From: Balanoglossus misakiensis
Lineage: Eukaryota > Animalia > Hemichordata
Length of the DNA stretch: 64,000 bases
NCBI GenBank assembly: GCA_040954595.2
Contig: CM082585.2
Coordinates: forward strand, 696,814-760,813
Reading direction: 5' to 3'
The position numbers and the translations under genes are program-made. The notes under the pieces are model-generated. The model ran no database searches, was not told the DNA's origin, and saw only the letters and a program-made list of their open reading frames with translations. Positions 38,301 to 59,552 of this stretch are shown piece by piece; positions within the stretch are counted from its first letter, which is position 1, and every line of letters starts with the position of its first letter.

Positions 38301-41300
38301 AATGGGCTGTGCTCTGGTTAATGTTGACGCAAAGGTTGACCCCACTGTGTTCTCTGGTTAATGTTGACGCAAAGGTTGATCCCACGAAACACTCAAAATT
38401 AATGGGCAGCATACTGTCCACTCTGGCCTGGTTACTGTGTGCTCTGGTTTATGTTGACGCAAAGGTTGACCCCACCAAACACTCAAAATTAATGGGCAGC
38501 ATACTGTCCACTCTGGCCTGGTTACTGTGTGCTCTGGTTAATGTTGACGCAAAGGTTGACCCCACCAAACACTCAAAATTAATGGGCAGCACACTGTCCA
38601 CTATGGCCTGGTTACTGTGTGCTCTGGTTAATGTTGACGCAAAGGTTGACCCCACCAAACACTCAAAATTAATGGGCTGTGCTCTGGTTAATGTTGACGC
38701 AAAGGTTGACCACACCAAACACTCAAAATTAATGGGCAGCACACTGTCCACTATGGCCTGGTTACTGTGTGCTCTGGTTAATGTTGACACAAAGGTTGAC
38801 CCCCACCAAACACTCAAAATTAATGGGCACGATACTGGCCACTATGGCCTGGTTACTGTGTGCTCTGGTTAATGTTGACGCAAAGGTTGACCCCACCAAA
38901 CACTCAAAATTAATGGGCAGCACACTGTCCACTATGGACTGGTTACTGTGTGCTCTGGTTAATGTTGACACAAAGGTTGACCCCACCACACACTCAACAT
39001 TAATGGGCAGCACACTGTCCACTCTGGCCTGGTTACTGTGTGCTCTGGTTAATGTTGACGGAAAGGTTGACCCCACCAAACACTCAAAATTAATGGGCAG
39101 CATACTGTCCACTCTGGCCTGGTTACTGTGTGCTCTGGTTAATGTTGACGGAAAGGTTGACCCCACCAAACACTCAAAATTAATGGGCAGCATACTGTCC
39201 ACTCTGGCCTGGTTACTGTGTGCTCTGGTTAATGTTGACGCAAAGGTTGACCCCACTGTGTACTCTGGTTAATGTTGACGCAAAGGTTGATCCCACCAAA
39301 CACTCAAAATTAATGGGCAGCATACTGTCCACTCTGGCCTGGTTACTGTGTGCTCTGGTTAATGTTGACGCAAAGGTTGACCCCACCAAACACTCAAAAT
39401 TAATGGGCAGCATACTGTCCACCCTGGCCTGGTTACTGTGTGCTCTGGTTAATGTTGACGCAAAGGTTGACCCCACCAAACACTCAAAATTAATGGGCAG
39501 CACACTGTCCACTATGGCCTGGTTACTGTGTGCTCTGGTTAATGTTGACGCAAAGGTTGACCCCACCAAACACTCAAAATTAATGGGTAGCATACTGTCC
39601 ACTCTGGCCTGGTTACTGTGTGCTCTGGTTAATGTTGACGCAAAGGTTGACCCCACCGAACACTCAAAATTAATGGGCAGCATACTGTCCACTCTGGCCT
39701 GGTTAATGTTGACGCAAAGGTTGACCCCATCAAGCACTCAAAATTAATGGGCAGCATACTGTCCACTATGGCCTGGTTACTGTGTGCTCTGGTTTATGTT
39801 GACGCAAAGGTTGACCCCACCAAACACTCAAAATTAATGGGCAGCACACTGTCCACTATGGCCTGGTTACTGTGTGCTCTGGTTAATGTTGACGCAAAGG
39901 TTGACCCCACCAAACACTCAAAATTAATGGGCAGCACACTGTCCACTATGGCCTGGTTACTGTGTGCTCTGGTTAATGTTGACGCAAAGGTTGACCCCAC
40001 CAAACACTCAAAATTAATGGGCAGCACACTGTCCACTATGGCCTGGTTACTGTGTGCTCTGGTTAATGTTGACGCAAAGGTTGACCCCACCAAACACTCA
40101 AAATTAATGGGCAGCACACTGTCCACTATGGCCTGGTTACTGTGTGCTCTGGTTAATGTTGACGGAAAGGTTGACCCCACCAAACACTCAACATTAATGG
40201 GCAGCACACTGTCCACTCTGGCCTGGTTACTGTGTGCTCTGGTTAATGTTGACGGAAAGGTTGACCCCACCAAACACTCAAAATTAATGGGCAGCATACT
40301 GTCCACTCTGGCCTGGTTACTGTGTGCTCTGGTTAATGTTGACGGAAAGGTTGACCCCACCAAACACTCAAAATTAATGGGCAGCATACTGTCCACTCTG
40401 GCCTGGTTACTGTGTGCTCTGGTTAATGTTGACGCAAAGGTTGACCCCACTGTGTACTCTGGTTAATGTTGACGCAAAGGTTGATCCCACCAAACACTCA
40501 AAATTAATGGGCAGCATACTGTCCACTCTGGCCTGGTTACTGTGTGCTCTGGTTAATGTTGACGCAAAGGTTGACCCCACCAAACACTCAAAATTAATGG
40601 GCAGCATACTGTACACTCTGGCCTGGTTACTGTGTGCTCTGGTTAATGTTGACGCAAAGGTTGACCCCACCAAACACTCAAAATTAATGGGCAGCACACT
40701 GTCCACTATGGCCTGGTTACTGTGTGCTCTGGTTAATGTTGACGCAAAGGTTGACCCCACCAAACACTCAAAATTAATGGGTAGCATACTGTCCACTCTG
40801 GCCTGGTTACTGTGTGCTCTGGTTAATGTTGACGCAAAGGTTGACCCGACCGAACACTCAAAATTAATGGGCAGCATACTGTCCACTCTGGCCTGGTTAA
40901 TGTTGACGCAAAGGTTGACCCCATCAAGCACTCAAAATTAATGGGCAGCATACTGTCCACTATGGCCTGGTTACTGTGTGCTCTGGTTTATGTTGACGCA
41001 AAGGTTGACCCCACCAAACACTCAAAATTAATGGGCAGCATACTGTCCACTCTGGCCTCGTTACTGTGTGCTCTGATTAATGTTGACGCAAAGGTTGACC
41101 CCACCAAACACTCAAAATTAAATGGCAGCATACTGTCCACTCTGGCCTGGTTACTGTGTGCTCTGGTTAATGTTGACGCAAAGGTTGACCCCACCAAACA
41201 CTCAAAATTAATGGGCAGCATACTGTCCACTCTGGCCTGGTTACTGTGTGCTCTGGTTAATGTTGACGCAAAGGTTGACCACACCAAACACTCAAAATTA

Positions 41301-42372
41301 ATGGGCAGCACACTGTCCACTATGGCCTGGTTACTGTGTGCTCTGGTTAATGTTGACGCAAAGGTTGACCCCACCAAACACTCAAAATTAATGGGCAGCA
41401 CACTGTCCACTATGGCCTGGTTACTGTGTGCTCTGGTTAATGTTGACGCAAAGGTTGACCCCACCAAACACTCAAAATTAATGGGCAGCACACTGTCCAC
41501 TATGGCCTGGTTACTGTGTGCTCTGGTTAATGTTGACGCAAAGGTTGACCCCACCAAACACTCAAAATTAATGGGCAGCACACTGTCCACTATGGCCTGG
41601 TTACTGTGTGCTCTGGTTAATGTTGACGCAAAGGTTGACCCCACCAAACACTCAAAATTAATGGGCAGCACACTGTCCACTATGGCCTGGTTACTGTGTG
41701 CTCTGGTTAATGTTGACGCAAAGGTTGACCCCACCAAACACTCAAAATTAATGGGCAGCACACTGTCCACTATGGCCTGGTTACTGTGTGCTCTGGTTAA
41801 TGTTGACGCAAAGGTTGACCCCACCAAACACTCAAAATTAATGGGTAGCATACTGTCCACTCTGGCCTGGTTACTGTGTGCTCTGGTTAATGTTGACGCA
41901 AAGGTTGACCCCACCAAACACTCAAAATTAATGGGCAGCACACTGTCCACTATGGCCTGGTTACTGTGTGCTCTGGTTAATGTTGACGCAAAGGTTGACC
42001 CCACCAAACACTCAAAATTAATGGGCAGCACACTGTCCACTATGGCCTGGTTACTGTGTGCTCTGGTTAATGTTGACGCAAAGGTTGACCCCACCAAACA
42101 CTCAAAATTACTGGGCAGCATACTGTCCACTATGGCCTGGTTACTGTGTGCTCTGGTTAATGTTGACGCAAAGGTTGACCCCACCAAACACTCAAAATTA
42201 ATGGGCAGCATACTGTCCACTCTGGCCTGGTTACTGTGTGCTCTGGTTAATGTTGACGCAAAGGTTGACCCCACTGTGTACTCTGGTTAATGTTGACGCA
42301 AAGGTTGATCCCACGAAACACTCAGCATAATGTCCACTCTGGCCTGGTTACTGTGTGCTCTGGTTAATGTTA
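26325..42372. repeat. 16-kb satellite array, 90-bp monomer (about 180 units) with 74/75-, 60- and 41-bp deletion variants and higher-order duplications
   Basis: Monomer ggttaatgttgacgcaaaggttgaccccaccaaacactcaaaattaatgggcagcatactgtccactatggcctggttactgtgtgctct; explains all 30-aa repeat ORFs on both strands. Confidence 0.98.
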
Positions 42373-43197: not shown

Positions 43198-43226
43198 TTA
43201 ACTCTATAGTTTAACATGATACTTAC

Positions 43227-43412
43227 GAACACATGATTGGTTAAAAGTGTAGACATCATACATTGAGAGACCAGTTTCTCCAGGTGGCAGATAGAATCCA
43301 CCTGTGCCGTTATTTGCATATAAGAGATAGCCTTCTTCACAGGAACATTGAAAACCACCTGCAGTGTTTTTACAAAGTTGATCACAAGAATGTGAAGCAC
43401 ATTCATTTATAT
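43227..43412 (-). pseudogene. uif-like exon: Ca-EGF with Uif-type insert
   Basis: ctttgtag|ATATAAATGAA...GTTC|gtaagt; DINECASHSCDQLCKNTAGGFQCSCEEGYLLYANNGTGGFYLPPGETGLSMYDVYTFNQSCV. Confidence 0.9.
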
Positions 43413-43933
43413 CTACAAAGAAGGAACATGGATTGGATTAAAACAATGTACGTTCAGTAAAATTGAAAGTATTGCCATTTTTTTTAATCGTGAATTTTGG
43501 GATTATCTTGTGTACGTACAAGATGAATCTGTGATAAAATAAAGGCGTCACCTTGCTTGCTTTTGAAATACAAGGCCATTAATTTAGTTGATAATAGAAG
43601 AAACCTGCTGACTCAGCATGGTTCACCAATGGTTTGTCTATGGACAAAAACCTTAAAGAAATTTATCTCAAAATAGAGCATTGTAACCACACAATTTTAT
43701 TTGACCAATGAATTTATATTTACTAGACTGAGCTATGTGTAAAATTTCGTGAAAATGACAATAGTAGAAGTTTGTTTTCTAGCAATTATCAATGTAATCC
43801 TATGAGAAAAAGACACCTGAGATTAAAAGGTCATTCCAAAAATTTATCTGGAATTCTGAAATAAGTTCGGAATGTGTTAAATGTGAAAATAGTGACTTGA
43901 AGTTATGTTGCAAGTGACTTGTTTATGTCTCAC

Positions 43934-44062
43934 CTTTGCATGCTGTTCCATTCACATCTGGTTCAAATCCCACCTAACATGCACACTGATAGTCACCATC
44001 TCTATTTTCACAGACTTGATTGATTCCACACGGTGCCACCAATGTACTACATTCATTGATAT
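43934..44062 (-). pseudogene. uif-like exon: Ca-EGF with in-frame TAG
   Basis: tttcag|...AAAG|gtgaga; DINECSTLVAPCGINQVCENRDGDYQCAC*VGFEPDVNGTACK. Confidence 0.9.
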
Positions 44063-44340
44063 CTGAAATGTTATTCATCAAGATATGATCAAAATCCCAC
44101 AGGTCCACTGGTAAATTCATACCAACAAGTTTAGCTGGGAACCACCAGACCAACAGGACATTTTCACAAACAAATTTTCGCGAACTATGCAAGAGCCAAA
44201 AAAAATCATACCTTCTATCTCTGTACTGGTCACCACGCCCTCACCAATCACAATTTCGGGACAGTCTATCAGAACAAGGATCACAATGATAAGAATGCAT
44301 GCAGACAAATACTTAAACTCATAAATGTCAGTTGTTTTAA

Positions 44341-44564
44341 AGTGAAGGGGTCGTCGCAATGCGTTTGTTTATAAACATTACAATTCATCTAGAAATCCCT
44401 CAAATAAGATAATTCTTAGAATGAACGAAGCAGCTGACAGTATCCTAGACTGGCCTTGACAGCAACTGAAGATCCTAGTAGGTCGTGGCTGTCTAATTTC
44501 AGGGATTTGTGGATGAATTGCAATGTTTATAAACAAACAAACGCAGTGCGACGACCCCATCACT
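44341..44564. mobile_element. Palindromic TTAA-type MITE
   Basis: agtgaaggggtcgtcgcaatgcgtttgtttataaacatt...aatgtttataaacaaacaaacgcagtgcgacgaccccatcact; flanked by ttaa and ttat. Confidence 0.75.
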
Positions 44565-44785
44565 TTATTGAGTGTGATACAAGAGTGTTGCCATTCCTGT
44601 CAATGGTCCAAAAATGCATTGCAATTGTAAGAAATTACTGTCTCTGTTTTTCCAGCTCTTTGAAGTTTCGTAAAAATTCAAAAACATTTGCACCTTTCAC
44701 TTAATGACTCTAAATCACAAGGAATAAAGGGAGAGTGTGTTTCTAAGAATTCTGTAACAACTTTTTCTGAAATGTTAGTAAGTTA

Positions 44786-45671
44786 CTGTAAAACACTTTA
44801 TTTTCGCGAGCAAGAGATTTTCGCGAAATACGCGAGAGCCAAAATAGCGTGAAAATAAAAAGTTGCGTAATTTTTTAGAAGATAAAGATGCAATGAATGA
44901 AATAAGAGAACGCGAAAATTAATACTGGCGAAACAGTGGCCTCTCTCGATGTCGCGAAAAATTTCAACTCGTGAAAATAAAGTGTTTTACAATATGTGTA
45001 CCTGGTGAAAATGAAGCCCTGAATCCTTTAGCTGGTCGTGTTCTACTACTCCTGAACACAACCGAAAAGTGTCCAATGTCTGTACGGCAATCGGGTGGTG
45101 GCACAGTGCCATCAATGACTCCATCAGAATTGCCACTCCATGGACCAATAATGACATCATCATCACTCTCAGTACCATTGTATACCTTCAGAAACAAAGA
45201 CAAATTAAGCATGCATTGTAAATACCGTAAAACGGGATATCTTCACAACAGGAAATTTTCGCGATATCAAAGGTGGCTACTGTTACGCGACAATTAATTT
45301 TCACATTGCCATATTTTACTGCATTGTTATCTCTGAAGCATTTTAAGCGACTTTTTATTTTCATATTTTTTGGCTCTCACATAGTTTACGAAAATTTATC
45401 GTTCACGAAAATTTTATAGTATTCAATCCTTGTTGCATTTCCTGCTGTAACAGCTACTCAACATACTGTAAAATGGGAAATGTTCGCAAACAATAAATTT
45501 TCGCGATCTACGTGAGAGCCATCAAAACATGAAAATAAAAAGTTGCGTAAAAATGTTTTTCGGGGATAATGATGCAGTGAAATACAAGAACGTGAAAAGT
45601 TATTGTTGCATAACACTTGCCTCTTTTGATATCGCGAAAATTTCATGTTGCAAAAGTATCCCGTTTTACAG
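44786..45671. mobile_element. Three cgcgaaa-family TA MITEs (44786-44991, 45225-45419, 45466-45671) around a CUB exon
   Basis: ta-c(t/c)gtaaaa...tttta(c/t)a(g/a)-ta termini; similar to 13412-13609. Confidence 0.7.
45002..45185 (-). pseudogene. uif-like exon: CUB3, C-terminal half
   Basis: tttctgaag|GTATAC...CCAG|gtacac; VYNGTESDDDVIIGPWSG...FSVVFRSSRTRPAKGFRASFS. Confidence 0.85.
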
Positions 45672-45838
45672 TATATATGTGATTAATTAAATTTCCAAAT
45701 TGTGTTCCAAAGTTGTATAGTTTGAAGTAATGTCTGCCAAAATTGTCAAACTAAAATCACTGCAAAATAATATGACAATTTTTTTAATATGACAAATATT
45801 TTTAACATGGCTGACTCATGATCATATCTGATACTCAC

Positions 45839-46023
45839 AATGATGTAATCAACATCTGTGTTCCTCTCTAATCCAAAGTTCTCATCAAAGATAAGAGTTA
45901 ATGGTCTTCCAGTTGGTTCCTTGATTAACCAGCTACACATAACATCATCAGGGTAAGTGCTAACATCATACCCTGGTGACTGAATCGTGCCAAAACTACG
46001 CAGAATTTCAATTCCCTGGCAAC
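45839..46023 (-). pseudogene. uif-like exon: CUB3, N-terminal half
   Basis: ctttaaag|GTTGC...ATT|gtgagt; CQGIEILRSFGTIQSPGYDVSTYPDDVMCSWLIKEPTGRPLTLIFDENFGLE. Confidence 0.9.
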
Positions 46024-46031
46024 CTTTAAAG

Positions 46032-47504
46032 AAACAAGTGACCTATCGGTCAAAAGAGCTCTGCTGACTTTAACAGTGAAACCTATAGCTGGGCAATGAT
46101 ATGAATACCCTAGGTTTTAATCATAACAATTGTATTCTATTAAACAAAACCAAACATAGACATCACAAGTATTTAATATCCACATTCAGCTTGATTCATT
46201 GTGCTAAAGAAATAAAGAATTTATTCCTAAAGAACAACATCAAAAGGAAGTACCAAGGTTCTAATTTGCATATTCATGACCCGATCAAAATTCCAATAAA
46301 ACAAAATCAGGTAGGGGCACCATAACACACATTCCTACTAAATTTTAGCGCCATCGTACATGTAGTTAGGGAGAAGAAGATTTTTGACCAAAAATTCTAT
46401 TTTTAGATCTAATTTGCATATTTATGACCCAATCAAATCCAAATTAACAAAATCAGGTAGGGACACTATAACACACATTCCTACTAAATTTCAGCTCCAT
46501 CGTACATATAGTTAGGGAGAAGAAGATTTTTTACCAAAAATTATATTTTTAGATCTAATTTACATATTCATGACCCGATCATATCCAAATTTATAAAATC
46601 AGGTAGAGGCCTCATAACACACATTCCTACCATATTTCAGCTCCATCGTACATGTAGTTAGGGAGAAGAAAATTTTTGACCAAAAATTCTATATTTAGAT
46701 CTAATTTGCATATTTATGACCCCATCAAATCCAAATTTACAAAATCAGGTAGGGGCACCATAACACACATTCCTACCAAATTTCAGCTCCATTGTACATG
46801 TAGTTATGGAGAAGAAGATTTTTTACCAAAAATTCTATTTTTAGATCTAATTTGCATATTCATGACCCGATCATATCCAAATTTATTAAATCAGGTAGGG
46901 GCACCATAACACACATTCCTACCAAATTTCAGCTCCATCGTACATGTAGTTAGGGAGAAGAAAATGTTTGACCAAAATTCTATTTTTAGATCTAATTTGC
47001 ATATTTATGACCCCATCAAATCCAAATTTACAAAATCAGGTAGGGGCACCATAACACACATTCCTACCAAATTTCAGCTCCATTGTACATGTAGTTATGG
47101 AGAAGAAGATTTTTTACCAAAAATTATATTTTTAGATCTAATTTGCATATTCATAACCCGATCATATCCAAATTTATAAAATCAGGTAGGGGCACCATAA
47201 AACACATTCCTACCAAATTTCAGCTCCATCGTACATGTAGTTAGGGAGAAGAAAATGTTTGACCAAAATTCTATTTTTAGATCTAATTTGCATATTTATG
47301 ACCCCATCAAATCCAAATTTACAAAATCAGGTAGGGGCACCATAACACACATTCCTACCAAATTATAGCTAAATATGCAATGTCGTTTTAAAGAAGAAGA
47401 TTGAAATACCAAAAGTTGACGGACGCCGGACGCCGGACGACGGACGGACACTTATCAACCTACTGCTACAGCTTGGCTGACACAAGTGACAGCCGAGCTA
47501 AAAA
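46032..47504. mobile_element. Complete HINE/Pearl-like element with about 8 tandem ~145-bp core repeats
   Basis: aaacaag head with short hairpin (tgacc...ggtca); core repeats at about 46260-47400 alternating as a ~290-bp dimer; (GGAC)n microsatellite; terminal hairpin gcttggctg...cagccgagc plus A-run. Confidence 0.8.
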
Positions 47505-47881
47505 TACCAAACAAGGAATAATGAATTCAATCCACAGGTTTGGTGTAATCCTGGCTGCCTTTTATTTTGTGCTAGGGGATCAAATCACATAATAATTGCC
47601 TTCTGGATAAAAAGTCGTACGCGACAGAAGAAATGACTGTTAACTGTATATGACTTCCTTAGGTCAAACCTTTCTGTCGTTATACATGTAGTTATCAAAT
47701 TAAACTCATTTAACTTTTTTCACATTTTGTTATTTTTTCTGTTAAAAAGTTCCATAATGACCCAGTATCAGATTAGCTTATATTATAAACTTCCAGAAAG
47801 AATTGCAAAAGAAGATAGATCTGTGATCCTTACAATTCTTACTGGGTTGAAATTCTTTGGGAAGGATTTTAAGTGACTTAA

Positions 47882-48461
47882 AGGGACAAAGTTTCTCTCA
47901 CTCGCTGCCCTTTTTCCATTAACTATGTTTGATACAAGACACTGTTTATTTTATTCTACATGTGGATATATAGTGAATCAACATTCAACCACGCACAACT
48001 TCCATCCCGTTTGTAGGATATGAGAGTAAAAATATTGCCAAAATTAAGTAGTTTCATAATTTTATTGGTATTTTAAAAATGTTTTCCTGTTTTTTTGTTT
48101 ACTTTTTTATTTTTTTTTCTATTTGTTGATTGTAATGCTGCATGGCGTTTACCAGTCATTTCAGTTTTTCAGTTCTTTTACTATTTTTATTCTTTAAGTC
48201 TCTCTCTCTCGCTGCCCCTTTTCCATTAATTATCGTTTGATTATCGTTTATGTTATTCTACATGTGGATATATAGTGAATCAACATTCCATCCCGCTTCA
48301 TTTTGGGCGAGATTTTTACTCTCATATCCTAAAAATGGGATGGAAGGTGTGTGTGGTCGATTGTTGATTCACTATATATCCTCATGTAGAATAACATAAA
48401 CGGTGTCTTGTATCAAACATAATTAATGGGAAAAGGGCAGCGAGAGAGAGAGACTTCGTCC
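47882..48461. mobile_element. Rearranged copy of the 1502-1849 Kolobok-like MITE
   Basis: ttaa|agggacaaagt...gacttcgtccct|ataa; a second left-arm copy restarts at about 48197. Confidence 0.8.
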
Positions 48462-48904
48462 CTATAAGGACACCTTTAGCATTGATGAGGTAATATAAGA
48501 ATACATCTGATAAAGAATATTTTCACATCCCAATAAACCAAAATCAAAAACAACTGGAAGAGCCGTTTCTGACATAAGTGGACTTTTGGACCAAAAATGT
48601 CTAAAACTACCCACCCCCCTCCTCCCCAGTATTGATATTTGTCACATGTTTATGTACACCATAATAACAAATATTGTAGGTCCTTGTAAACCAAATTTTA
48701 AGAAATCGGAAAAGTGACTACTGAGATTTGACCAGAAATGACAAAAATAAAATGTATTTTTAAAAATATAATTACTAATTTTTGTCATGCTGTAAAACAA
48801 CTCACACGATTAATTGCATCTGAATCCACTAATAACATGAAATGAGTTGTGAAAAAGAGTACAAATATGAGTTCATCTACATGTACATGTAGTCTTCTAT
48901 TTAC

Positions 48905-49056
48905 CTGTAAAGTGACAACAAATTCTGTTGTGAATGATGCCAGCTGCCAGTTACAATCTTCATTGTTGAGATAATTCTTGCCTTCAAAATATTCTGTACT
49001 GCTGAGATTCTGTTTATATGACTGTGCTATGAAATTCCCACCACACAAAGAATACA
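48905..49056 (-). pseudogene. uif-like exon: CUB2, N-terminal half
   Basis: ctttcag|TGTATTCT...TTACAG|gtaaat; LCGGNFIAQSYKQNLSS...NYLNNEDCNWQL...VVTLQ. Confidence 0.9.
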
Positions 49057-49349
49057 CTGAAAGAAAGAAGAAGTCATCTTAACAGAAACACTTCACAAAC
49101 AGGACATCAGCAAGATCACAGTCGAGGTAGGGCTAATATTGCCTACATGTGCAATCTATAATGTTATACCAGGTTCACGTAGGGTAAAATTCGAAACGTT
49201 TCAGAGACACTATTTGCCTAAGGTAAACACAGAGCATTAATGCTTTTAGTTGCCTTGTGTCCACACATGCAAAGTTTATGTGTAGTTCGCGAAAATTTAT
49301 CGTTTGCGAAAATTTCCAGTTTTACATTATGTATAAAACTTGGTATTAC

Positions 49350-49551
49350 CTGCTTGCCAAGATGCTTCAAAGCCAGTAGCAGTATGCGAACTATCTGAGA
49401 GAAATTTCACCAACATTGCATTACCACTGCTAATAACTTCATCAGGCTGGTCCGGTCCACTGTATGTAGCAAGAACTTTGGATGGGTCAAACACAGACAC
49501 CTCGACAATGACAACAGTATCATGATAAAGTTCAGTGTCAAAATGTAGAAA
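49350..49551 (-). pseudogene. uif-like exon: CUB1, C-terminal half
   Basis: cttttcag|TTTCTA...GCAG|gtaata; FLHFDTELYHDTVVI...YSGPDQPDEVISSGNAMLVKFLSDSSHTATGFEASW. Confidence 0.9.
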
Positions 49552-49642
49552 CTGAAAAGAATAAAAAAAATGTCACAACACACATCATAAATAGTGAGCT
49601 GTCTCAAGCCAATATACATGAAAATAAACACAGTTTCATGAC

Positions 49643-50628
49643 TTAAGCCCCATTAGCTGTAACTTTTTGCATTTTTCAGTATTTCTATTCTGTGTATCAA
49701 TTATAGTTTCTTGTTCAGCTACGCAGGGCAGAGTTAAATCCATAGTCTTAACTTCTCAACGAAACCTATGAGGGCACAATCGGCATTGTTGTTGTTTGAA
49801 AACATTCGTAAATAATAACAACAGTCAGTACACATACACATGACTCGTTGACAAGCAGAGAGCTGGGTGTGATGGGTTACTCATGAGGAGAGGAACAAGA
49901 AAAAGTGTTTCATTTAAATTATAACACATGATAGCGAGGGCAATATCACGATTTGAAGCCTGCACGAGGGATGGTGATCTCTGACCATAATATTGATGAT
50001 GCCCGAGCCGCAGGCGAGGGTATCATCAATATTGTGGTCAGAGATCACCAGCCCGAGGGCAGGCTTCAAATCGTGATGTTGCCGGAGCATAATGTGTTAT
50101 TAATTTTATTACGCCGAACATTTGAACGTACATACACTGCAGCATGTAGCATGTAGACTCGCGTCCATATGTCGTACGTTGCTGAGAATGTAAAATGTCT
50201 CGATCTCCCAAGAATTATACGATACCTACTTCGAACTTAGATTATTTTGAAAATACTGCGCTGTTGGTTGCGATTTTGGTGTATTTACTGCCCGTTTGCA
50301 GTAAAATATCATCCAGTAGAACAGGTGTTAAGCCTGTGTGTCGCTTTGAAGCCATATAGATGCGGGAGTTGACTGATCTTGAAGGAAGCCATTGAACGAC
50401 AGTTTGGAACGCGCAGAAGTCGTGCCCAGAACACCAAAACAACCCAGCGGGCAATATCAGCGCACGCGACAGGGCTTTATCAACTCTAGCCATGTTATAT
50501 CACTTTTTTTCTATATCACGTGAGCGCGTCTCAGCCAATCACGAAAACGGTATAATACGTGAGGTGTAATAAACACAAAACAAAATTACTGATAAACTAG
50601 CCTGAAGTTATAGATAATGGCCCTTTAA
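49643..50628. mobile_element. TTAA-type MITE containing a nested element
   Basis: Imperfect TIRs ttaagccccattagctgtaac...gttatagataatggccctttaa. Confidence 0.5.
49916..50573. mobile_element. Non-autonomous element with long terminal hairpin (Crypton-like)
   Basis: ~180-nt hairpin at 49921-50100 with loop cccgagccgcaggcgaggg; then tttattacgcc (50105), which pairs with ggtgtaataaa (50563-50573). Confidence 0.6.
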
Positions 50629-51504: not shown

Positions 51505-52484
51505 TACCAAATTCTTTGAGGATCAGACTTTCTGCTGACAGTTCAAAAGTAGTCTTTAGTTGCAAAGGAGATGATCATACAATTAAACCACGATCGTGAC
51601 GTCACACTATTCAATAGACAAGTCATTCACTGAGAGAACCTCCGTCTCACACAAAACCACAGGTTTAAAACCAAGTCCCGGGTAGTTCTAGAACTACCTC
51701 CGGGGGTTCTAGAACTACCGCAGGACTCAGTCTCACCTGTCGTAACAAAAATACAAATACACAATGCTTTATTTGCATAATTACATTTACTTCTATACCT
51801 GTATTCAAAGTACATTTCATTTGAATAGAGTAATTGTTATGTTAATTGAAAGCGAACTGGATATGCGACAGTCTCCGGATCATTTCATTCAATGCTTCAC
51901 ATTCACAGTTTTGTCTACTGACGTACAAAGCTAATGTCTTGGTGGCTCTCGAGAGTCTTCATAACATGATAATAAAAGTATAAAATAGACAAAAATCAAT
52001 TCACCAGAAACAAACTAACGTTGCAATAAATTAACTACAAATTTCTAGAAAATTATACTAAATCACATTATCCCCAGATTTGCTTGTATTACTCTAACCA
52101 GATGCTTCACTTCGATTTTGCTTCACTACCGACATGTAACAAGGTTGGCTGTTTTAGGCCTACTGTTTAACAAAACCCGCGTACCTTGCAAAATTCTGCT
52201 TACTTTTTGTTGCTGTTCACCAGACGTGGGTTTGTAATGTCGGACGGATTCACTTCGGTATCAAGTCTTTTCGCAGATGAGTTACTCACCAATATCGCTA
52301 CCATACAGACGCGTTGCCGCTGCGGCTCGTAGAGAGTGGTTCGTTCAAAAGCCAGGGAGGCCAATACACAGACGGGCAGTAGTACCATGTAGAGCATTGT
52401 TACCCGGTTTTTGCTTTAACAACATGTAGCCGCTTGTTTTCGCAGATGATATAGATCGGAACTACATGTATCTTCAGATCAATT

Positions 52485-52561
52485 ATATAATATTTAAAGC
52501 CTCGTCACTCCGCTCAAGGATTATCCTATTGTTTAAGTATTGGGATCGGGATGTTCATTGT
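52485..52561 (-). repeat. Split direct repeat B2 (77 bp), 3' terminus
   Basis: Matches 52815-52891 with one mismatch (ctcgtcac vs ctcatcac). Confidence 0.95.
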
Positions 52562-52699
52562 GGAAATCCAGAAGCGAAGTGATTAAGACATTCAAGGCGA
52601 GGGTGGGTGGGTGGGAAATTTTGACCCGCCTGTGCCATGAACATACATTCCACCTGATCAGCAATACCCCTAAATTGTTCGCAGTTCTTGCCCTCTTCC

Positions 52700-52814
52700 T
52701 CGGTGCCTAGCCAAGGAATGACACTGTATCTTGTCTTCACTTAGCTTTTATATACTTCATGAATATTAATGAGATATCGCGGATGTATTTCGCTCAGTAA
52801 TGAGGCTTTGAATA
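52700..52814 (-). repeat. Split direct repeat A2 (115 bp)
   Basis: Identical by eye to 58661-58775. Confidence 0.95.
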
Positions 52815-52891
52815 ATATAATATTTAAAGCCTCATCACTCCGCTCAAGGATTATCCTATTGTTTAAGTATTGGGATCGGGATGTTCATTGT
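52815..52891 (-). repeat. Split direct repeat B1 (77 bp), directly abutting A2
   Basis: Matches 52485-52561. Confidence 0.95.
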
Positions 52892-53307: not shown

Positions 53308-54564
53308 CTAAAAAGCGACCGTAAACCCAGATAGCTGGTCCATGTCCTCGTAATCATTAGTTTCGGCGATGCAGTCTGTTACTTCTCTAATCTTTTCTGC
53401 CGTAGCTCCCGGGGATGACACAGACAGCAATTTGGTGTAATGGTTAGCCATAGTCTCTGTTCGCCATCCAACATGGTCCATCACTTGCTGAATACTAGCC
53501 CCAGCTAGAGACATGGTGATGGCACAGGCACTTCTAATACTATGTGGTGTCTCCCCTTCATCTATGTTGAGTTCTTGTAGGTATAACTTTAGTCGTTGAT
53601 AGACAACCTGCGAGGACAGTGATTTATTTTCCACATAGCCATCAGGGGTTGTTGGTCTAAAGAGGAAACCAGTACGCAGTGAGTAACCAAGGGTCTCCGC
53701 TAGCTGAACATATTGCTCGAGTGTATTAATTGGACACAGCCTTATATTCTGACATCTTTTAATTGCAAACATATTCGTTCCGGCTCCACGTAAAGTCTTG
53801 CCAAACGTATGATTAAAGATCATGCCCGAATTATCTGGGAAACGGAGCACTTCCTGAGTTTTAACTTGTCCAAGATCACCCGCCCTGTCACCTGAGAAGA
53901 ACAAAATCTTGAGAAAAGCAAGATCCCTCGCATACATATACAGGAGTATCGTTGATGGCGCTGTTACCATCTTATTTAAGATGTGGTTAAAAACCTTATC
54001 TAATTTAGGCCAAAATAATGGCTTGGGTTGTTTGGGCGTAATATTCGCCTTGGCTTGCTCCTCTGATACCTTTTTAATATAACGTTGTACCATTACGGAA
54101 TTTGCTGGATTTTGTGTGTGTTTACATTGATACTGACGTATAGCTTCATAATAAGCTGACAACTTTGAAACCATGTTCCGAATTGTACCCTCTCTCAAGC
54201 GCCTTGGGCAGTCACAAGGCATATGACCAAAACGACCTAAGTATTCGCAGTTAAATCGATGAACCTGCGTTCTCGCATCTTTGTCTTTGAAAACAAGAAA
54301 ACGAACTACCTCTTGCGGACCCGCTAATGTTACTGACGTCGATGTTGGTAAGTTTGCCAAAAACAGTTCGAATTGCTGGATTAAGCGATCTTTCTGAACT
54401 TCATACGCAGATTTTTGGCCCAATAAATCAGAGATACGTTGATCAATCTCATCTAGCTTTATGGAATCATCATCAACCTTAGGCCCTGGTGTCGGAATAG
54501 CTGATTGACATACGCCACATAACTTGAGATTGGGTACGTTCAAAGCACCACAAATCCAGCACAT
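53308..54564 (-). CDS. Tyrosine recombinase with N-terminal C4 zinc finger and ALOG domain
   Basis: CWIC...CGVC finger; ALOG signature TQVHRFNC...PCDCPRRLREGTIRNMVSKL...NPANSVMVQRYIKKVSEEQAKA; catalytic motifs GDRAGDL, GKT, HSIR, HVGW and NHYTK all intact; ATG directly follows a 3' splice site. Confidence 0.95.
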   Translation of the reverse strand: MCWICGALNVPNLKLCGVCQSAIPTPGPKVDDDSIKLDEIDQRISDLLGQKSAYEVQKDRLIQQFELFLANLPTSTSVTLAGPQEVVRFLVFKDKDARTQVHRFNCEYLGRFGHMPCDCPRRLREGTIRNMVSKLSAYYEAIRQYQCKHTQNPANSVMVQRYIKKVSEEQAKANITPKQPKPLFWPKLDKVFNHILNKMVTAPSTILLYMYARDLAFLKILFFSGDRAGDLGQVKTQEVLRFPDNSGMIFNHTFGKTLRGAGTNMFAIKRCQNIRLCPINTLEQYVQLAETLGYSLRTGFLFRPTTPDGYVENKSLSSQVVYQRLKLYLQELNIDEGETPHSIRSACAITMSLAGASIQQVMDHVGWRTETMANHYTKLLSVSSPGATAEKIREVTDCIAETNDYEDMDQLSGFTVAF

Positions 54565-54796
54565 CTGTTCACAAAAAATAACACACAAAAGATTAAGAAA
54601 GAATGTTTTATAACCTTTTCAGCATTTATTACATATCATCTTAGAAGTAGTTGCCAGTACATGCCGTGACATTATCCCTGCAGTACTAGTATAAAATTTA
54701 TACAACCAAAGATTATCATAATACAGACAGCTATAAGTAAAGTTTCAATCTGTTCACTATAATCCCTTATATGAAGGTTCGACAAATCGTAGTACA

Positions 54797-55474
54797 TTAT
54801 TTTGAATACTCAAATGAGATTACGTAGAGATCACATGGGAGTGGGTGGTCAACATATCCCCGCCGTGAGGGCGCTTTAATAACATTCCTTTCCCCTTTAT
54901 TAGCGATTTTTGTTACTTTCCTGGTTTCATGTCTAATCAATGGCCAGTATGATTTCAAAAAACGAAACCTAGGCACTAAGACTGTAGCATTGAGTTTACT
55001 TTCAATAATGTGCTTAATTACCGCTGGCACTAGTATGAATGGCGGGTATACATATATCCTTTCTTTAGCCTTAAAACTATGATGGAAGAAGTTAACTCCT
55101 TCACAACCCATCTGATAAAACCGGGATACATAGCGGGGCAACCGCCTATTTGAGTAACTCGCCATGCCATCTACGTGATGTGGACCAAAGGTTCTGTCGA
55201 GCCTGTTCCACATGTCATCTGACAACATCGCATCGGTAAGCGACGTATCTCTCGATTGAGCATCAGCCTCATTGTTTTGAGATGAAACATGCGTCATAGT
55301 AAGTCGCACGTTACACTCAAAGCACAGATTAAATATATTCTTTAAGATCTCATTGAGACCAAGTACACGGGCCCCTGGAACACCATTATGCCACGCTTGT
55401 ACGACTGGCAAGGCATCCACGTATGCATCTACTCTCGTGTCGCGAATATAATGTTTAATCGCAGTTAATGCCCT
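54797..55474 (-). CDS. Pol C-terminal part: RNase H second half plus Dam-like N6-adenine methyltransferase domain (frameshifted from RT)
   Basis: RALTAIKHYIRDTRVDAYVDALPVV...HVSSQNNEADAQSR (RNase H), then VDGMASYSNRRLPRYVSRF...YVYPPF (DIRS/PAT methylase-like domain). Confidence 0.9.
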   Translation of the reverse strand, partial: RALTAIKHYIRDTRVDAYVDALPVVQAWHNGVPGARVLGLNEILKNIFNLCFECNVRLTMTHVSSQNNEADAQSRDTSLTDAMLSDDMWNRLDRTFGPHHVDGMASYSNRRLPRYVSRFYQMGCEGVNFFHHSFKAKERIYVYPPFILVPAVIKHIIESKLNATVLVPRFRFLKSYWPLIRHETRKVTKIANKGERNVIKAPSRRGYVDHPLPCDLYVISFEYSK

Positions 55475-56624
55475 GAATCGCCTCTGCTTCTTTCCTAACT
55501 ATAGGCATACCCCTCCATTCTACCTCCCACATATCACCCACTTCTATTTTCCGATTACCTAAATATGTTACAGCACCCCACCGAAAGCTACTTGAATCGG
55601 TAAAGATTGTTACACCCACATGTTTTTCCGTAGCCCAAGTGAATTTCCCCGACTTCTCAATAATTTCCTTCCATTGCTCAATTTCCTCCTTAAGTAGGCC
55701 TCTGACAGGTACAAGATTTCTTGCGTGTCGTGAAAACTTACTAGACGCTATAGCCATCTGCCGTATGTATAGTCGGGCGCATGGTATAGCTAGGGCCAAA
55801 GAAATACATTTTCCCATAAGTTTTTGAATAGAGGGTAAGGGAACGGCCCGCCTCGCTAAAATCTGATCAACCAACGTGAGGAATTTAATTTTTTTTGCAT
55901 CAGGGATAGAAAAGGATTGAGACTCCGAATCCACCGTCAAGCCTAACATTATGAGAGATGTGGTAGGATACAACAAACTCTTCTCTAGTGCTAAGAAATA
56001 TCCCGACTCTATTGCTAGTTTGCAAAGTATATAGGCCGCAGCTTGGGCTCTTTTAAGTGGGTTCCATGCCTCAATTGCTACCGTGTGATCTTGCTGTGGT
56101 ATTAACCCCCCACCATGCCTATCATCTATATATTGAATACAGGGGACCCCAAGTAATCTCGCAAAGTTGGTAACACAGTATCCCAATGTATGGTATACAT
56201 ACGCCGACAGTTTCCACCCAAAGGGCAATGTGTTATTTATATACCATACTCCCGCCCATTGAAAACCTACATACGTTCTGTCACATTGATTAACCAAAAT
56301 ATGGTCGTACCCACTCTTGTCGTCACATTTAAAGTGGTAGTCGTTACGTTCTAAATATCGAGAAACTTCAATCAAAGTATCCAATTTGAAAGGTATATCT
56401 TTAATCCATAGATTGAGATATCGCATGTCTATGCACATTCTTGGCTTGGTAGGGGTAGCAGGGGTAGCAAAGATCTCTCCACGGGCAACAGACTGTACAC
56501 TCGGTAAACTACCACCATCATTGTCCCGTCGAGGGGCGCCCTCTATGGTCACCCAATTGTAGTGATTTCGTTTAACCACCGTCGGATCAACCGGATATTG
56601 TAACTCCCATTCTGGTACATCAAA
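55455..56624 (-). CDS. Pol: reverse transcriptase plus RNase H first half
   Basis: KPRMCIDMRYLN, CDDKSGYDHI, LPFGW, YIDD, LGLTVDS, FTDSSSFRWGA, KEAEAI; frame breaks at about 55475. Confidence 0.95.
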   Translation of the reverse strand, partial: FDVPEWELQYPVDPTVVKRNHYNWVTIEGAPRRDNDGGSLPSVQSVARGEIFATPATPTKPRMCIDMRYLNLWIKDIPFKLDTLIEVSRYLERNDYHFKCDDKSGYDHILVNQCDRTYVGFQWAGVWYINNTLPFGWKLSAYVYHTLGYCVTNFARLLGVPCIQYIDDRHGGGLIPQQDHTVAIEAWNPLKRAQAAAYILCKLAIESGYFLALEKSLLYPTTSLIMLGLTVDSESQSFSIPDAKKIKFLTLVDQILARRAVPLPSIQKLMGKCISLALAIPCARLYIRQMAIASSKFSRHARNLVPVRGLLKEEIEQWKEIIEKSGKFTWATEKHVGVTIFTDSSSFRWGAVTYLGNRKIEVGDMWEVEWRGMPIVRKEAEAIQGINCD

Positions 56625-56889
56625 CTGAAACAACAAACACGCACGACTAAATTATACTTATGCAAAACAAGTATCCCACAGAAGGCCCCCCAAGACAGGA
56701 CCATGCGAATGGCAGGTTGCAAAAAGCAAAGGGCTTAAGTGAGGCCCCCTGTCAAGGAAGTCTAAATGAGACACTAACACACTAAGCGTATACAGTTGAA
56801 AATTTTTTTTTTTTTTTGAAATTTTATTTACAATGGCATCTGCCAAGGGAAATTCTCAAAATACACAATCACATGTTCTCTAGTGAAAC

Positions 56890-57387
56890 TCATTGTTCAT
56901 TTTGTTTTCCTCTACACTCACGAGCAAAGTGGCCCGGCTTGCCACATGTATAACATTTAAGCTCTCTTTTGGGACGTCTAAAAGTAAAACCTGCCCTCTG
57001 GTTATATGGTTGAAAACGATAGTAGCTACGAGCCCCGAAGGAATTACTAGCATTACTATTGGCGAACTTGGCGACCTTGGCAGCGATTTCTTCCTCCTCT
57101 TTATTCCCAAGTAACAACACTATCAAACGGCCAGCATCGGGTCCAAAATCATTTGCTTCAAACTGAGCTAACACGGCCCTAAACCGTGCTAATTTAGGGT
57201 GGGCTACCCTAGTAGCTCTATCCACTAGTGTACGAAGTGCATTCGTTATTTGTAGCCGTGACGTATAAAAGGATGGTGCATGGGCTATCTCCATCAACTT
57301 TTGAAGAGCATCAGCCACGTTAGCCCCGCCAACAGCTTTCTCCATTTCTTCCACCTTCGTCACTAAGTCATTAAATTTTGATTGCAT
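56890..57387 (-). CDS. Gag-like protein with CCHC zinc knuckle (probable exon 2)
   Basis: CYTCGKPGHFAREC knuckle; ATG directly after ttttgtattttccag. Confidence 0.9.
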   Translation of the reverse strand: MQSKFNDLVTKVEEMEKAVGGANVADALQKLMEIAHAPSFYTSRLQITNALRTLVDRATRVAHPKLARFRAVLAQFEANDFGPDAGRLIVLLLGNKEEEEIAAKVAKFANSNASNSFGARSYYRFQPYNQRAGFTFRRPKRELKCYTCGKPGHFARECRGKQNEQ

Positions 57388-57477
57388 CTGGAAAATACAA
57401 AATACGCCATAATTCATCAATTGCAAGTCCAAATATTTACGACTAGCCTGCAATCACCAGCCACCGCAGTTTCACAA

Positions 57478-57985
57478 AATGTGGCACTTACTTTCATCTA
57501 TTGTGCCTGCAAAAATTGGCATTCATTGTTCATCGACTGTGCCCACAAAACTTGGCACTTTTCATCCACTGTGCCCGCAAAAATTGGCACTTACTTTTCA
57601 TCCACTGTGCCCACAAAATTGGCACTTACTTTTCATCCACTGTGCCCACAAAAATTGGCACTCACTTTTCATCCACTGTGCCCACAAAATTGGCACTAAC
57701 TTTTCATCCACTATGCCCACAAAAATTTGCACTTACTTTTCATCCACTATGCCCACAAAAATTGGCACTTACGTTTCATCCACTGTGCCCACAAAAATTG
57801 GCACTTACTTTTCATCCACTTTGCCCACAAAAAATTGGCACTTTTTATCCACTGTGCCCACAAAAATTGGCACTTACTTGTCCTCCACTGTGCCCACAAA
57901 ATTTGGCACTTTCATCAACTCTGCCCACAAAATTGGCATTACCATCAACTGTGTGCCCACGCAAAAAAAAATTGGCACTTTCATT
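57478..57985. repeat. ~37-bp minisatellite, about 13 copies, inside the retrotransposon's putative first intron
   Basis: Unit aaattggcacttacttttcatccactgtgcccaca; ggcac and gtgcc are complementary within each unit. Confidence 0.95.
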
Positions 57986-58423
57986 TTTTTTTTTTTTTTT
58001 TTAAAGCGGCGCTACAAAAATTTTAGCATAAAAAAGTTACTAACTAGGGCCCACAAAATTCACACATGGTAAGCCGTACAAAAGCTATTCACACGACTAT
58101 TCAACAAGAAAAGAACATTGAGCTGCGACTCCCTCCGTCAAAAAGAATAATTATAACAGTGTACTAAAAACAAAAAAAGGGGAATAAGAAATAAATGTCC
58201 AAAAAAAAAAAACACGAGCTTTCGCCCGGCCTAACGTATCAAATCCACCTATGAAACTATCCTGTCTAGGAAAAAATGGGACCACACCCTGCCACGAAAC
58301 AAGTACGTCGGACACAATCATGTGAAACGGTCATTGTGGCTGTGATGAAACACACTTGACACCTGCATTCTATGGCAAATATAACACCTGTAGAAAAAAC
58401 GGAAAATATACAACAATGTATAC

Positions 58424-58651
58424 CTGCTTTTCTTTATCCTCTGTCACTGTATCGTTCGCTGAGGCAGCTGCAGCTACTGCTGGTCCTGCAGGTTGCATGG
58501 GAACAGTACTCGTACGAGTTGTCTTTTGCGGTCCCTGGGTACGGCTTGTACTGGGAACGGGCTGACTATGCGCCTGTACGAAAGAAGCACTTGCATCGCT
58601 CACGGTACTTGTAGTTCTTGTAGTGCTAGTGGTTCGAGTTGCAGCTTCCAT
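58424..58651 (-). CDS. Putative leader exon of the retrotransposon (76-aa T/S/A/P-rich peptide)
   Basis: ATG at 58651 (MEAATRTT...EDKEKQ) ending in CAG|GTATAC, phase 0; composition turns T-rich immediately afterwards. Confidence 0.6.
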
Positions 58652-58660
58652 GCTCGCTCG

Positions 58661-58775
58661 TCGGTGCCTAGCCAAGGAATGACACTGTATCTTGTCTTCA
58701 CTTAGCTTTTATATACTTCATGAATATTAATGAGATATCGCGGATGTATTTCGCTCAGTAATGAGGCTTTGAATA
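58661..58775 (-). repeat. Split direct repeat A1 (115 bp), 5' terminus
   Basis: Identical to 52700-52814. Confidence 0.95.
58703..58715 (-). promoter_or_regulatory. Candidate TATA box in repeat A1
   Basis: Minus strand reads TATATAAAAG about 55 nt upstream of the leader ATG; also present in A2. Confidence 0.5.
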
Positions 58776-59552
58776 TCATGGACATTTGAAGGAAAATAAA
58801 AAAAAAGTGACACTTACATGTAGGCCTACTGCATTTGGCCTAAAAAATTTTCGCGTAAGCTTACCATGTGCACGCAAAACCCCAATAGCTGTAACCCTTC
58901 CCATAATACACTACGTAACACACCTGTAAAGTTTAATTTGATGCAAATTAATGTTTGAAATGAGCATATCACTCCGACACGTAAGTATGAACATTTAGAG
59001 TAACACCTGTCAAGCGTGGGCGATCTTGTAAGGCCCAGCAGGGCGGTCTCGAACTACCTGCCCACGACATGATTCATTTATAGGAAAAGGGGTGGCCAAC
59101 CAAATTTCACAGTCAGCAATGAAGAATAAGCCTCTTTTGATAAGCTTTTGTTCGTTCATTTTATTGAATCGTTGAGTAAAACGACGTCTTTGTGGTACAC
59201 GAAGCTCCAATGGTGACAATGTCTGTGGGGGATCGTGGTTTAAGTTAGAGAACCACCTCCCCCTCAGTGGTTCTTGGTTTCCAATCGCCTCGGGCCTGCG
59301 GCCCTCGGCAATTCGAAACCAAGAACCACCTCGGGGTCGGTGGTTCTCTATTACATAAATAGTCTAAAAGAAATTGTTAAGTAAACATAACCATACAATT
59401 AATGAGTGGAATTATCTAGCGACAACTGGCCTCAATTTTGAATTTCAAATATAACACCATTCTGCACCCAAGGAGACATCACATGATCTGATCCCCCTTG
59501 TTTAACTTTTAGTGGTGAGCTCTTCCAAGTATATCTTGTATTGCTTAGGGGA

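Follow-up and report, generated by a model that had tools for sequence, protein, structure and literature searches.

Leader-to-gag splicing and a probable alternative-last-exon organization in a DIRS-order retrotransposon of Balanoglossus misakiensis

A 64,000-nucleotide stretch of DNA from the hemichordate Balanoglossus misakiensis (GenBank assembly GCA_040954595.2, contig CM082585.2, positions 696,814 to 760,813, forward strand; hereafter the window, whose own numbering is used throughout) carries on its minus strand, from 58775 to 52481, a 6.3-kb split-direct-repeat, ALOG-recombinase retrotransposon of the order DIRS. Its parts run in the order A1, body, B1, A2, B2, and the body holds a 76-codon low-complexity open reading frame (ORF), Gag, a pol frame encoding reverse transcriptase (RT), RNase H and a methyltransferase-like end, and a recombinase with ALOG and integrase domains. 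The low-complexity ORF is a coding leader exon that is spliced to gag. We think it probable that the leader is also spliced in frame, either directly or by way of a short piece of gag or pol, to acceptors ahead of pol and recombinase, with each ORF serving as an alternative last exon. Our confidence in a direct join of leader to pol is somewhat lower than in this scheme as a whole, and a direct join to recombinase stands at close to even chances.

Splicing of the leader to gag

The original prediction, drawn from the letters of the window, had the leader open with an ATG at 58651 and end at a donor at 58424/58423, with acceptors at 57387, 56624 and 54564, all on the minus strand and in phase 0. 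These coordinates and phases proved correct, as did the statements that the ORFs do not overlap and are split by spacers, and that a TATA box in A1 (TATATAAAA) lies close upstream of the leader ATG, at a distance of 64 nt. A pyrimidine-tract CAG stands immediately before each of the three acceptor positions, in phase 0 for gag, pol and recombinase alike. By a simple score, the recombinase acceptor ranks 5th, that of gag 9th and that of pol 18th among the 409 AGs of the element. Taken in the window alone, the acceptors are no better than chance; the case against chance comes from the RNA junction and from the relatives.

Parts of the element occur in 17 sequencing runs, eight of which were examined (X1, X2, X4, X5, X7, X8, X10 and X14). 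None is recorded as RNA, and we judged their kind from size and evenness of cover: X1 and X2, with about 1000 million letters and an even depth near 330-350 over ORFs and spacers, are DNA-like, and the other six, with 21-144 million letters, are transcriptome-like. Contigs from two of these six, which belong to two studies (X5 of P2 and X8 of P3), contain the leader-gag joint 57387/58424 with GT..AG borders. The joint in X5 has 27 letters on its short side; in X8 it lies in one 1240-nt contig with at least 255 letters on either side. Both DNA-like runs, which cover nearly all of intron 1, lack the joint, and leader contigs of X4 and X7 end exactly at 58424, as expected of a branch.

The same runs weigh against the wider scheme in several ways. 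The predicted alternative splicing to three acceptors is borne out by contigs for leader and gag, but the joints 58424>56624 (pol) and 58424>54564 (recombinase) are absent from all eight runs, and contigs over the pol acceptor (X5, by depth, X7, X8 and X10) and over the recombinase acceptor (X4, X5 and X7) are unspliced. This absence is weak counter-evidence, as contigs drop rare forms, and it gives no support either. That the runs are RNA is a guess; the copies in them are related ones, about 96% alike, and the left flank of the window copy is not covered by any run. The spliced X8 contig starts 294 nt outside A1, the spliced X5 contig bears a foreign 180-nt 5' piece, and the leader-gag splice may come from host read-through transcripts rather than from the element's own promoter. 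In three runs of one study (X4, X5 and X7) the joint to the foreign piece is at 58670, next to a cryptic acceptor at the end of A1; thus host transcripts can capture the leader exon. A 22-nt pattern from this piece, allowing up to three mismatches, gave no hit in the window.

The window copy, about 4% diverged, is a dead insertion with a deletion in pol, a frameshift and an off-consensus donor. Other copies of the family, about 96% alike, have 356 letters where the window has 5, at 56453/56459, which amounts to a 351-nt in-frame loss from the N-terminal part of pol. Comparison with a Glandiceps protein agrees, in that a similar stretch of about 120 residues is missing from window pol. The lost piece contains at least one Met and a conserved FRNP motif. 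The claim that pol has no ATG until its KPRMCID motif therefore holds for the window copy but is in part an artefact of the deletion. Contigs from other copies are free of the frameshift near 55475, behind which window pol continues through RNase H and the methyltransferase-like domain to 54797. The donor had been called only moderately strong; it is indeed off consensus in the window, but this is partly a lesion of the copy, and other copies (unspliced contigs of X7 and X10) match the consensus at +5.

Acceptors, leaders and poly(A) signals in relatives

Relatives were fetched with an alignment of pol, which gave 80 metagenome loci and another nine from bacterial bins with contamination; at 80% nucleotide identity they fall into 57 families, the window included. 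From their content, the loci appear to be mostly invertebrate host DNA. The nine (L081-L089), in genome bins of Sedimenticola and other bacteria, are animal retrotransposon contigs that arrived as host contamination. A scan of IMG/VR yielded 212 pattern hits, none of them confirmed. The three genes of the relatives mostly occupy frames of their own, with spacers between them.

Acceptors were tested by taking the top-scoring AG in a fixed range upstream of a readable anchor, chosen blind to frame. For pol, 29 of the 34 families that could be tested have this AG in phase 0 (p = 6e-10 against 1/3); for recombinase 17 of 22 do, and in 12 families it falls exactly 42 nt before the first Cys. For gag the figure is 18 of 19 intact frames, or 17 of 25 with broken frames included, all eight misses being broken. 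Acceptor scores reach 10.8 for pol, compared with 4.8 on the opposite strand and 6.3 in coding controls, and 11.4 for recombinase, compared with 2.1 and 6.8. Set against the local AG phase background, a cruder score puts 25 of 34 pol acceptors (p = 9e-5) and 14 of 22 recombinase acceptors (p = 0.04) in phase 0. On the debit side, the acceptor and donor scores are our own heuristics, and the p-values overstate independence, as the families are related. Between families the spacers can scarcely be aligned (16 of 406 pairs), and identity in the RT core is 38-78% (median 48%, 18 families). Together these figures indicate that selection, not recent descent, has kept the sites, although the families are not independent. 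The check on relatives that had been proposed thus came out in favour of the original prediction: donor and acceptor phases are kept over this range of RT identity while the spacers diverge.

The search for leaders covered the 33 families in which 1500 nt or more precede pol. In 15 of them it found a short low-complexity ORF opening with ATG; one of these (L065) has no in-frame donor. Donors are in phase 0 in 12 of 14 candidates, and in 10 of 11 after three picks were discarded as false (L032 and L070, which are gag itself, and the doubtful L068). The relatives' leaders, 38-77 aa long and alike in composition only, typically end in GAG followed by GT ahead of a U-rich stretch, and four of them have a TATA word 108-129 nt upstream. 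No Pfam match was found for the window leader. A packaging or targeting motif derived from the leader was considered and rejected, as the leaders have neither sequence conservation nor a Pfam match. Because the leader is conserved in composition only, a shared start codon is the simpler role, and the co-packaging tag suggested in the original prediction is unsupported; most likely the leader supplies that codon and sets the ratios of the proteins.

AATAAA or ATTAAA is present in 16 of 20 gag-pol spacers and in 9 of 17 pol-recombinase spacers, against 2.9 expected from base shuffles in either case. The protein ratio had been ascribed to competition among acceptors; these poly(A) words behind gag, and often behind pol, argue for alternative last exons and not for competition alone.

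Conservation of this kind bears on the possibility that the observed splice is exonisation of a dead copy by host read-through, with no role in the life cycle. The contigs that bear the leader do start either in flanking DNA or in a foreign 5' exon, and host CUB/EGF exons follow the window copy, which has the same orientation as they do. Accidental exonisation, however, cannot preserve a leader ORF, the phase of its donor, the phases of three acceptors and the poly(A) words in families whose median RT identity is 48%, and many gag frames have no early ATG of their own. We regard this explanation as very unlikely.

In-frame start codons bear on a different proposal, that only gag is spliced, that pol and recombinase are expressed from internal promoters, by reinitiation or from their own ATGs, and that the pyrimidine tracts are a by-product of U-rich spacers. 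The missing pol and recombinase junctions suit it, as does the recombinase ATG of the window, which lies right at the acceptor. Some in-frame Met also stands between the upstream stop and the FRDP motif of pol in 29 of 34 families. The original prediction had counted an upstream ATG of pol's own against itself, and the figure does tell against spliced pol, in that pol is not strictly dependent on an outside start; the first Met, however, is scattered, lying anywhere from codon 3 to codon 166 after the acceptor. Moreover, U-richness predicts neither the phase-0 bias nor the fixed 42-nt distance, and no in-frame ATG precedes the conserved Zn ribbon of recombinase in 17 of 22 families. Splicing of gag alone is therefore improbable in our judgement.

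Annotated proteins of relatives support splicing into pol and recombinase as far as gene models go, and suggest that the donor can lie inside gag or pol. In Ptychodera flava, RefSeq models P0226-8 and P0231-2 (five of eight cluster members) begin with a 70-aa S/T/A/P-rich leader ending in Q and pass into the pol N-terminus within one codon of the pol acceptor predicted in the window; from about pol residue 80 they run on into recombinase. In oysters of three species, one 160-aa N-terminus that includes about 30 gag residues sits on recombinase (P0044, 47, 48, 50, 51; Ostrea P0224), and the same N-terminus sits on gag in Logan protein P0222. An Argopecten model has a gag-like coiled coil ahead of pol. 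It had been proposed that all three proteins come straight from the leader; the Ptychodera passage from leader to pol agrees with this, but annotated relatives reach recombinase through an N-terminal piece of gag or pol. The models carry two reservations, namely that RefSeq entries may rest on prediction and that the Ptychodera pol-recombinase fusion could be a genomic deletion.

The gag residues on oyster recombinase, the roughly 80 pol residues before that of Ptychodera and the Argopecten coiled coil all speak for a variant in which the three ORFs are spliced, but the recombinase acceptor, and perhaps that of pol, is reached from a second donor in the first codons of gag or pol. A conserved donor within the pol N-terminus was nevertheless rejected, the best donor being in phase 0 in 5 of 29 families, which also counts against the route through a pol piece in the preferred scheme. 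Gag offers no strong donor within its first 300 nt in 12 of 15 loci. The window offers weak internal donor candidates only, and the region matching the Ptychodera junction is deleted there. We hold this variant to be somewhat unlikely; it may coexist with direct splicing from the leader in some lineages.

A proposed route from one RNA to three proteins

In the scheme we prefer, with the leader feeding three acceptors, transcription would start from the TATA box in A1. Splicing of leader to gag, the step visible in contigs, combined with cleavage at the AATAAA after gag, would produce an abundant gag mRNA. When gag is skipped, splicing to the pol or recombinase acceptor would yield rarer mRNAs, as conservation and the gene models of relatives suggest. 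A fully unspliced read-through RNA from A1 to B2 would be the template of reverse transcription; an unspliced template is required because new copies keep their introns. Its escape from splicing and cleavage may depend on U1 bound at the leader donor, a guess by analogy with plant Copia. Finally, recombinase would drive insertion at ATT without duplication, as the ends read in the window and the mechanism given for DIRS1-like elements in the available part of PMC3266345 suggest.

We lean, by a small margin, towards a broader statement: that the elements of a whole clade, hosted by corals, molluscs, lancelets and acorn worms, have the build of a cellular multi-exon gene, in which one promoter and a coding leader feed gag, pol and recombinase as interchangeable last exons, so freeing the order of the ORFs, and in which an intron-retaining RNA with the intron 1 minisatellite is the genome and has to get round splicing, cleavage and export control by a route of its own. 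The order recombinase-gag-pol occurs in two families (L032:2885-7662 and L081:399-5123). In L032 the recombinase frame opens with a bivalve-like leader segment, and gag sits at a phase-0 acceptor 37 nt after the recombinase stop. With every ORF a spliced exon, their order may be unconstrained; tandem copies are an alternative for both loci.

Intron 1 contains a tandem array in seven of eight loci examined, from six families, with unrelated units of 26-141 bp (L005, L007, L016/L021, L037, L064 and L086). Such arrays could possibly serve as an RNA export, packaging or anti-splicing element. An annotation of Ngaro from Ectocarpus likewise mentions internal variable tandem repeats, in the part of PMC12477816 consulted.

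How DIRS-order elements obtain three proteins from one RNA is an open question, for which the literature consulted gives overlapping or separate ORFs and no mechanism. A conserved splice-and-polyadenylation scheme would mean that N-termini are mis-annotated wherever the first ATG was taken. It would also confront the element, for which no Rev-like factor is known, with a difficulty familiar from retroviruses, that of keeping genomic RNA unspliced, and it can be tested with existing RNA-seq.

Class, surroundings and comparison with known systems

Placement in the order DIRS rests on several features of the window element. The letters ATT stand at the left end, at the B1/A2 junction and at the right end, the flanks being otherwise unlike, and no target-site duplication was found at the element ends (one insertion fully read). 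RT/RNase H is combined with a tyrosine recombinase (RVT_1 E 2.6e-05, below the gathering score; Phage_integrase E 2.4e-12), and a Pfam search of the element gave no match to rve or a protease. RT_RNaseH is matched in 23 of 46 aligned members. The repeats run A1...B1 A2 B2 with the internal pair downstream of recombinase, a layout shared by L086, and Gag has a zinc finger, both as in echinoderm-form Pat1. The methyltransferase domain after RNase H is weak in Pfam (Dam, E 0.074 in the window; 1 of 46 members); a YxxPP-type motif is present in the window and in 108 of 120 pol homologues, and D.[MF][AS] in 86 of 120. ALOG_dom matches recombinase residues 50-167 (E 3.3e-17), after an N-terminal Zn ribbon (CxxC...CxxC). 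The Dirs1-like class, with inverted terminal repeats and ICR, was ruled out, as the window repeats are direct. In structure the element fits echinoderm-form Pat1, but the methyltransferase match is weak; the RT tree comprised homologues of the element. The closest proteins come from acorn worms, at 50% for recombinase (Ptychodera flava) and 68% for pol (Glandiceps talaboti), which by themselves would make the host probably a hemichordate or a near relative of one.

Features of the element, in window coordinates
Feature	Position	Strand	Basis or remark
Split direct repeat A1	58658..58775	-	99% match to A2; carries TATA box 58707-58715
Cryptic acceptor at end of A1	before 58667	-	Contigs of X4, X5 and X7 joined to 180 unlike letters at 58670
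Leader coding exon, 76 aa, T/S/A/Q/P-rich, low complexity	58424..58651	-	ATG 58651; ends CAG at 58424; phase-0 donor GTATAC at 58423; contig-joined to gag
Intron 1, 1036 nt, GT..AG (CT..AC on plus strand)	57388..58423	-	Contig joint skipping 1036 nt
36-bp minisatellite inside intron 1	57473-57942		Tandem array search
Gag exon, 165 aa, CCHC zinc knuckle	56890..57387	-	zf-CCHC E 6.8e-08; acceptor use seen in contigs
AATAAA after gag, predicted poly(A) signal of gag mRNA	56823..56828	-	Same signal in relatives' gag-pol spacers (counts in text)
Pol exon (RT, RNase H, methyltransferase-like domain), predicted phase-0 acceptor at 56624	54797..56624	-	Broken by in-frame deletion and frameshift
AATAAA after pol, candidate poly(A) signal	54625..54630	-	Found in other families (counts in text); chance for window spacer alone 0.38
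Tyrosine recombinase exon, 418 aa (N-terminal Zn ribbon, ALOG, integrase domain), predicted phase-0 acceptor at 54564	53308..54564	-	Pfam; acceptor conservation
Split direct repeat B1	52811..52891	-	98% match to B2
Split direct repeat A2	52697..52814	-	99% match to A1
Split direct repeat B2, right end of element	52481..52561	-	98% match to B1

Downstream of the element and on the same strand, exons for host CUB and calcium-binding EGF domains occupy 43207-49652 (minus strand), and a candidate exon at 60110-59998 suggests that the element lies inside a host intron in sense orientation. A 16-kb array of a 90-bp unit (26387-42333) is probably satellite DNA inside an intron; it has higher-order structure, and both of its strands contain long open frames. 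To the left of the element is a palindromic stretch (59246-59350), and similar words recur to its right at 51600-51740, which suggests insertion within an older hairpin-type repeat.

Among spliced retroelements, foamy-virus pol, the accessory genes of complex retroviruses and errantivirus env connect one 5' donor to several acceptors, with unspliced RNA as the genome. Retroviruses make gag from the unspliced RNA, and all their mRNAs have one common 3' end. By contrast, the window element splices gag itself, its leader is coding and its ORFs likely have poly(A) sites of their own. In plant Ty1/Copia, conserved alternative splicing with early termination yields an excess of a short gag mRNA (Oberlin et al. 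2017, PMC5580714, from the part of the text at hand). The likeness lies in the coupling of splicing to early termination for gag, a termination that is predicted in the window element; Copia differs, in the same text, by having one intron in a single gag-pol ORF, without a leader exon and without a spliced pol or integrase mRNA.

Within the order DIRS, 10 of 120 pol homologues of the window element carry a GDS hydrolase motif, a feature given in the literature for Ngaro. Ngaro is defined by an absent methyltransferase domain, and the window element appears to have one (with weak Pfam support), which argues against Ngaro. Pol frames reach about 900-950 aa in some relatives (L027, L081, L083, L086, L087; P0176, P0194, P0200, P0210, P0217), and several of these have either a match to an SGNH/GDSL hydrolase or its motif. 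In L070 a separate SGNH/GDSL-type frame of 219 aa follows recombinase; this frame stands behind an in-frame TAG that resembles an acceptor, and may be a fourth exon.

The window element belongs to the ALOG-recombinase clade of DIRS-order elements of Iyer and Aravind (2012, PMC3537659), whose metazoan copies are mostly fragmented according to the portion of that paper available. Common to both are the Gag Zn knuckle, RT-RNase H, apparently a methylase-like domain, a recombinase of Zn ribbon, ALOG and catalytic parts, marine invertebrate hosts and direct repeats. The window element has a leader exon, whereas the text of that paper mentions none and contains no 'splic', 'intron' or 'exon'. Echinoderm-form Pat1 (PMC4157794) shares the A1-B1-A2-B2 repeats, the Gag zinc finger, apparently the methyltransferase-like domain, and a recombinase in the same orientation; unlike the window element, it has no splicing described in the part of that source available.

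The scheme as a whole is not described in the open literature searched, including the text of PMC7192593, PMC9341512, PMC2632668, PMC6681497, PMC4157794, PMC3266345, PMC9940879, PMC5890265 and bioRxiv 2021.08.05.455354, nor in the text and 16 DIRS-related annotation-table rows of PMC12477816. An earlier notice is possible in Goodwin and Poulter, Poulter and Butler 2015, Repbase Reports or the Iyer supplement, which lie outside that literature.

A further parallel comes from mammals. For the LAP2alpha exons of TMPO and ZNF451, Abascal et al. (2015, PMC4495291) infer that a DIRS1-like gag brought a splice acceptor and a polyadenylation signal of its own. That case is host co-option from an inverted-repeat, DIRS1-like source and not an element's own expression, but the acceptor and poly(A) signal proposed there fit the scheme put forward here. 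An ORF that brings along an in-phase acceptor and a poly(A) signal is an exon ready for use. This would account for the two mammalian cases in which DIRS gag turned into an alternative last exon, and it may also have a bearing on how ALOG domains were captured.

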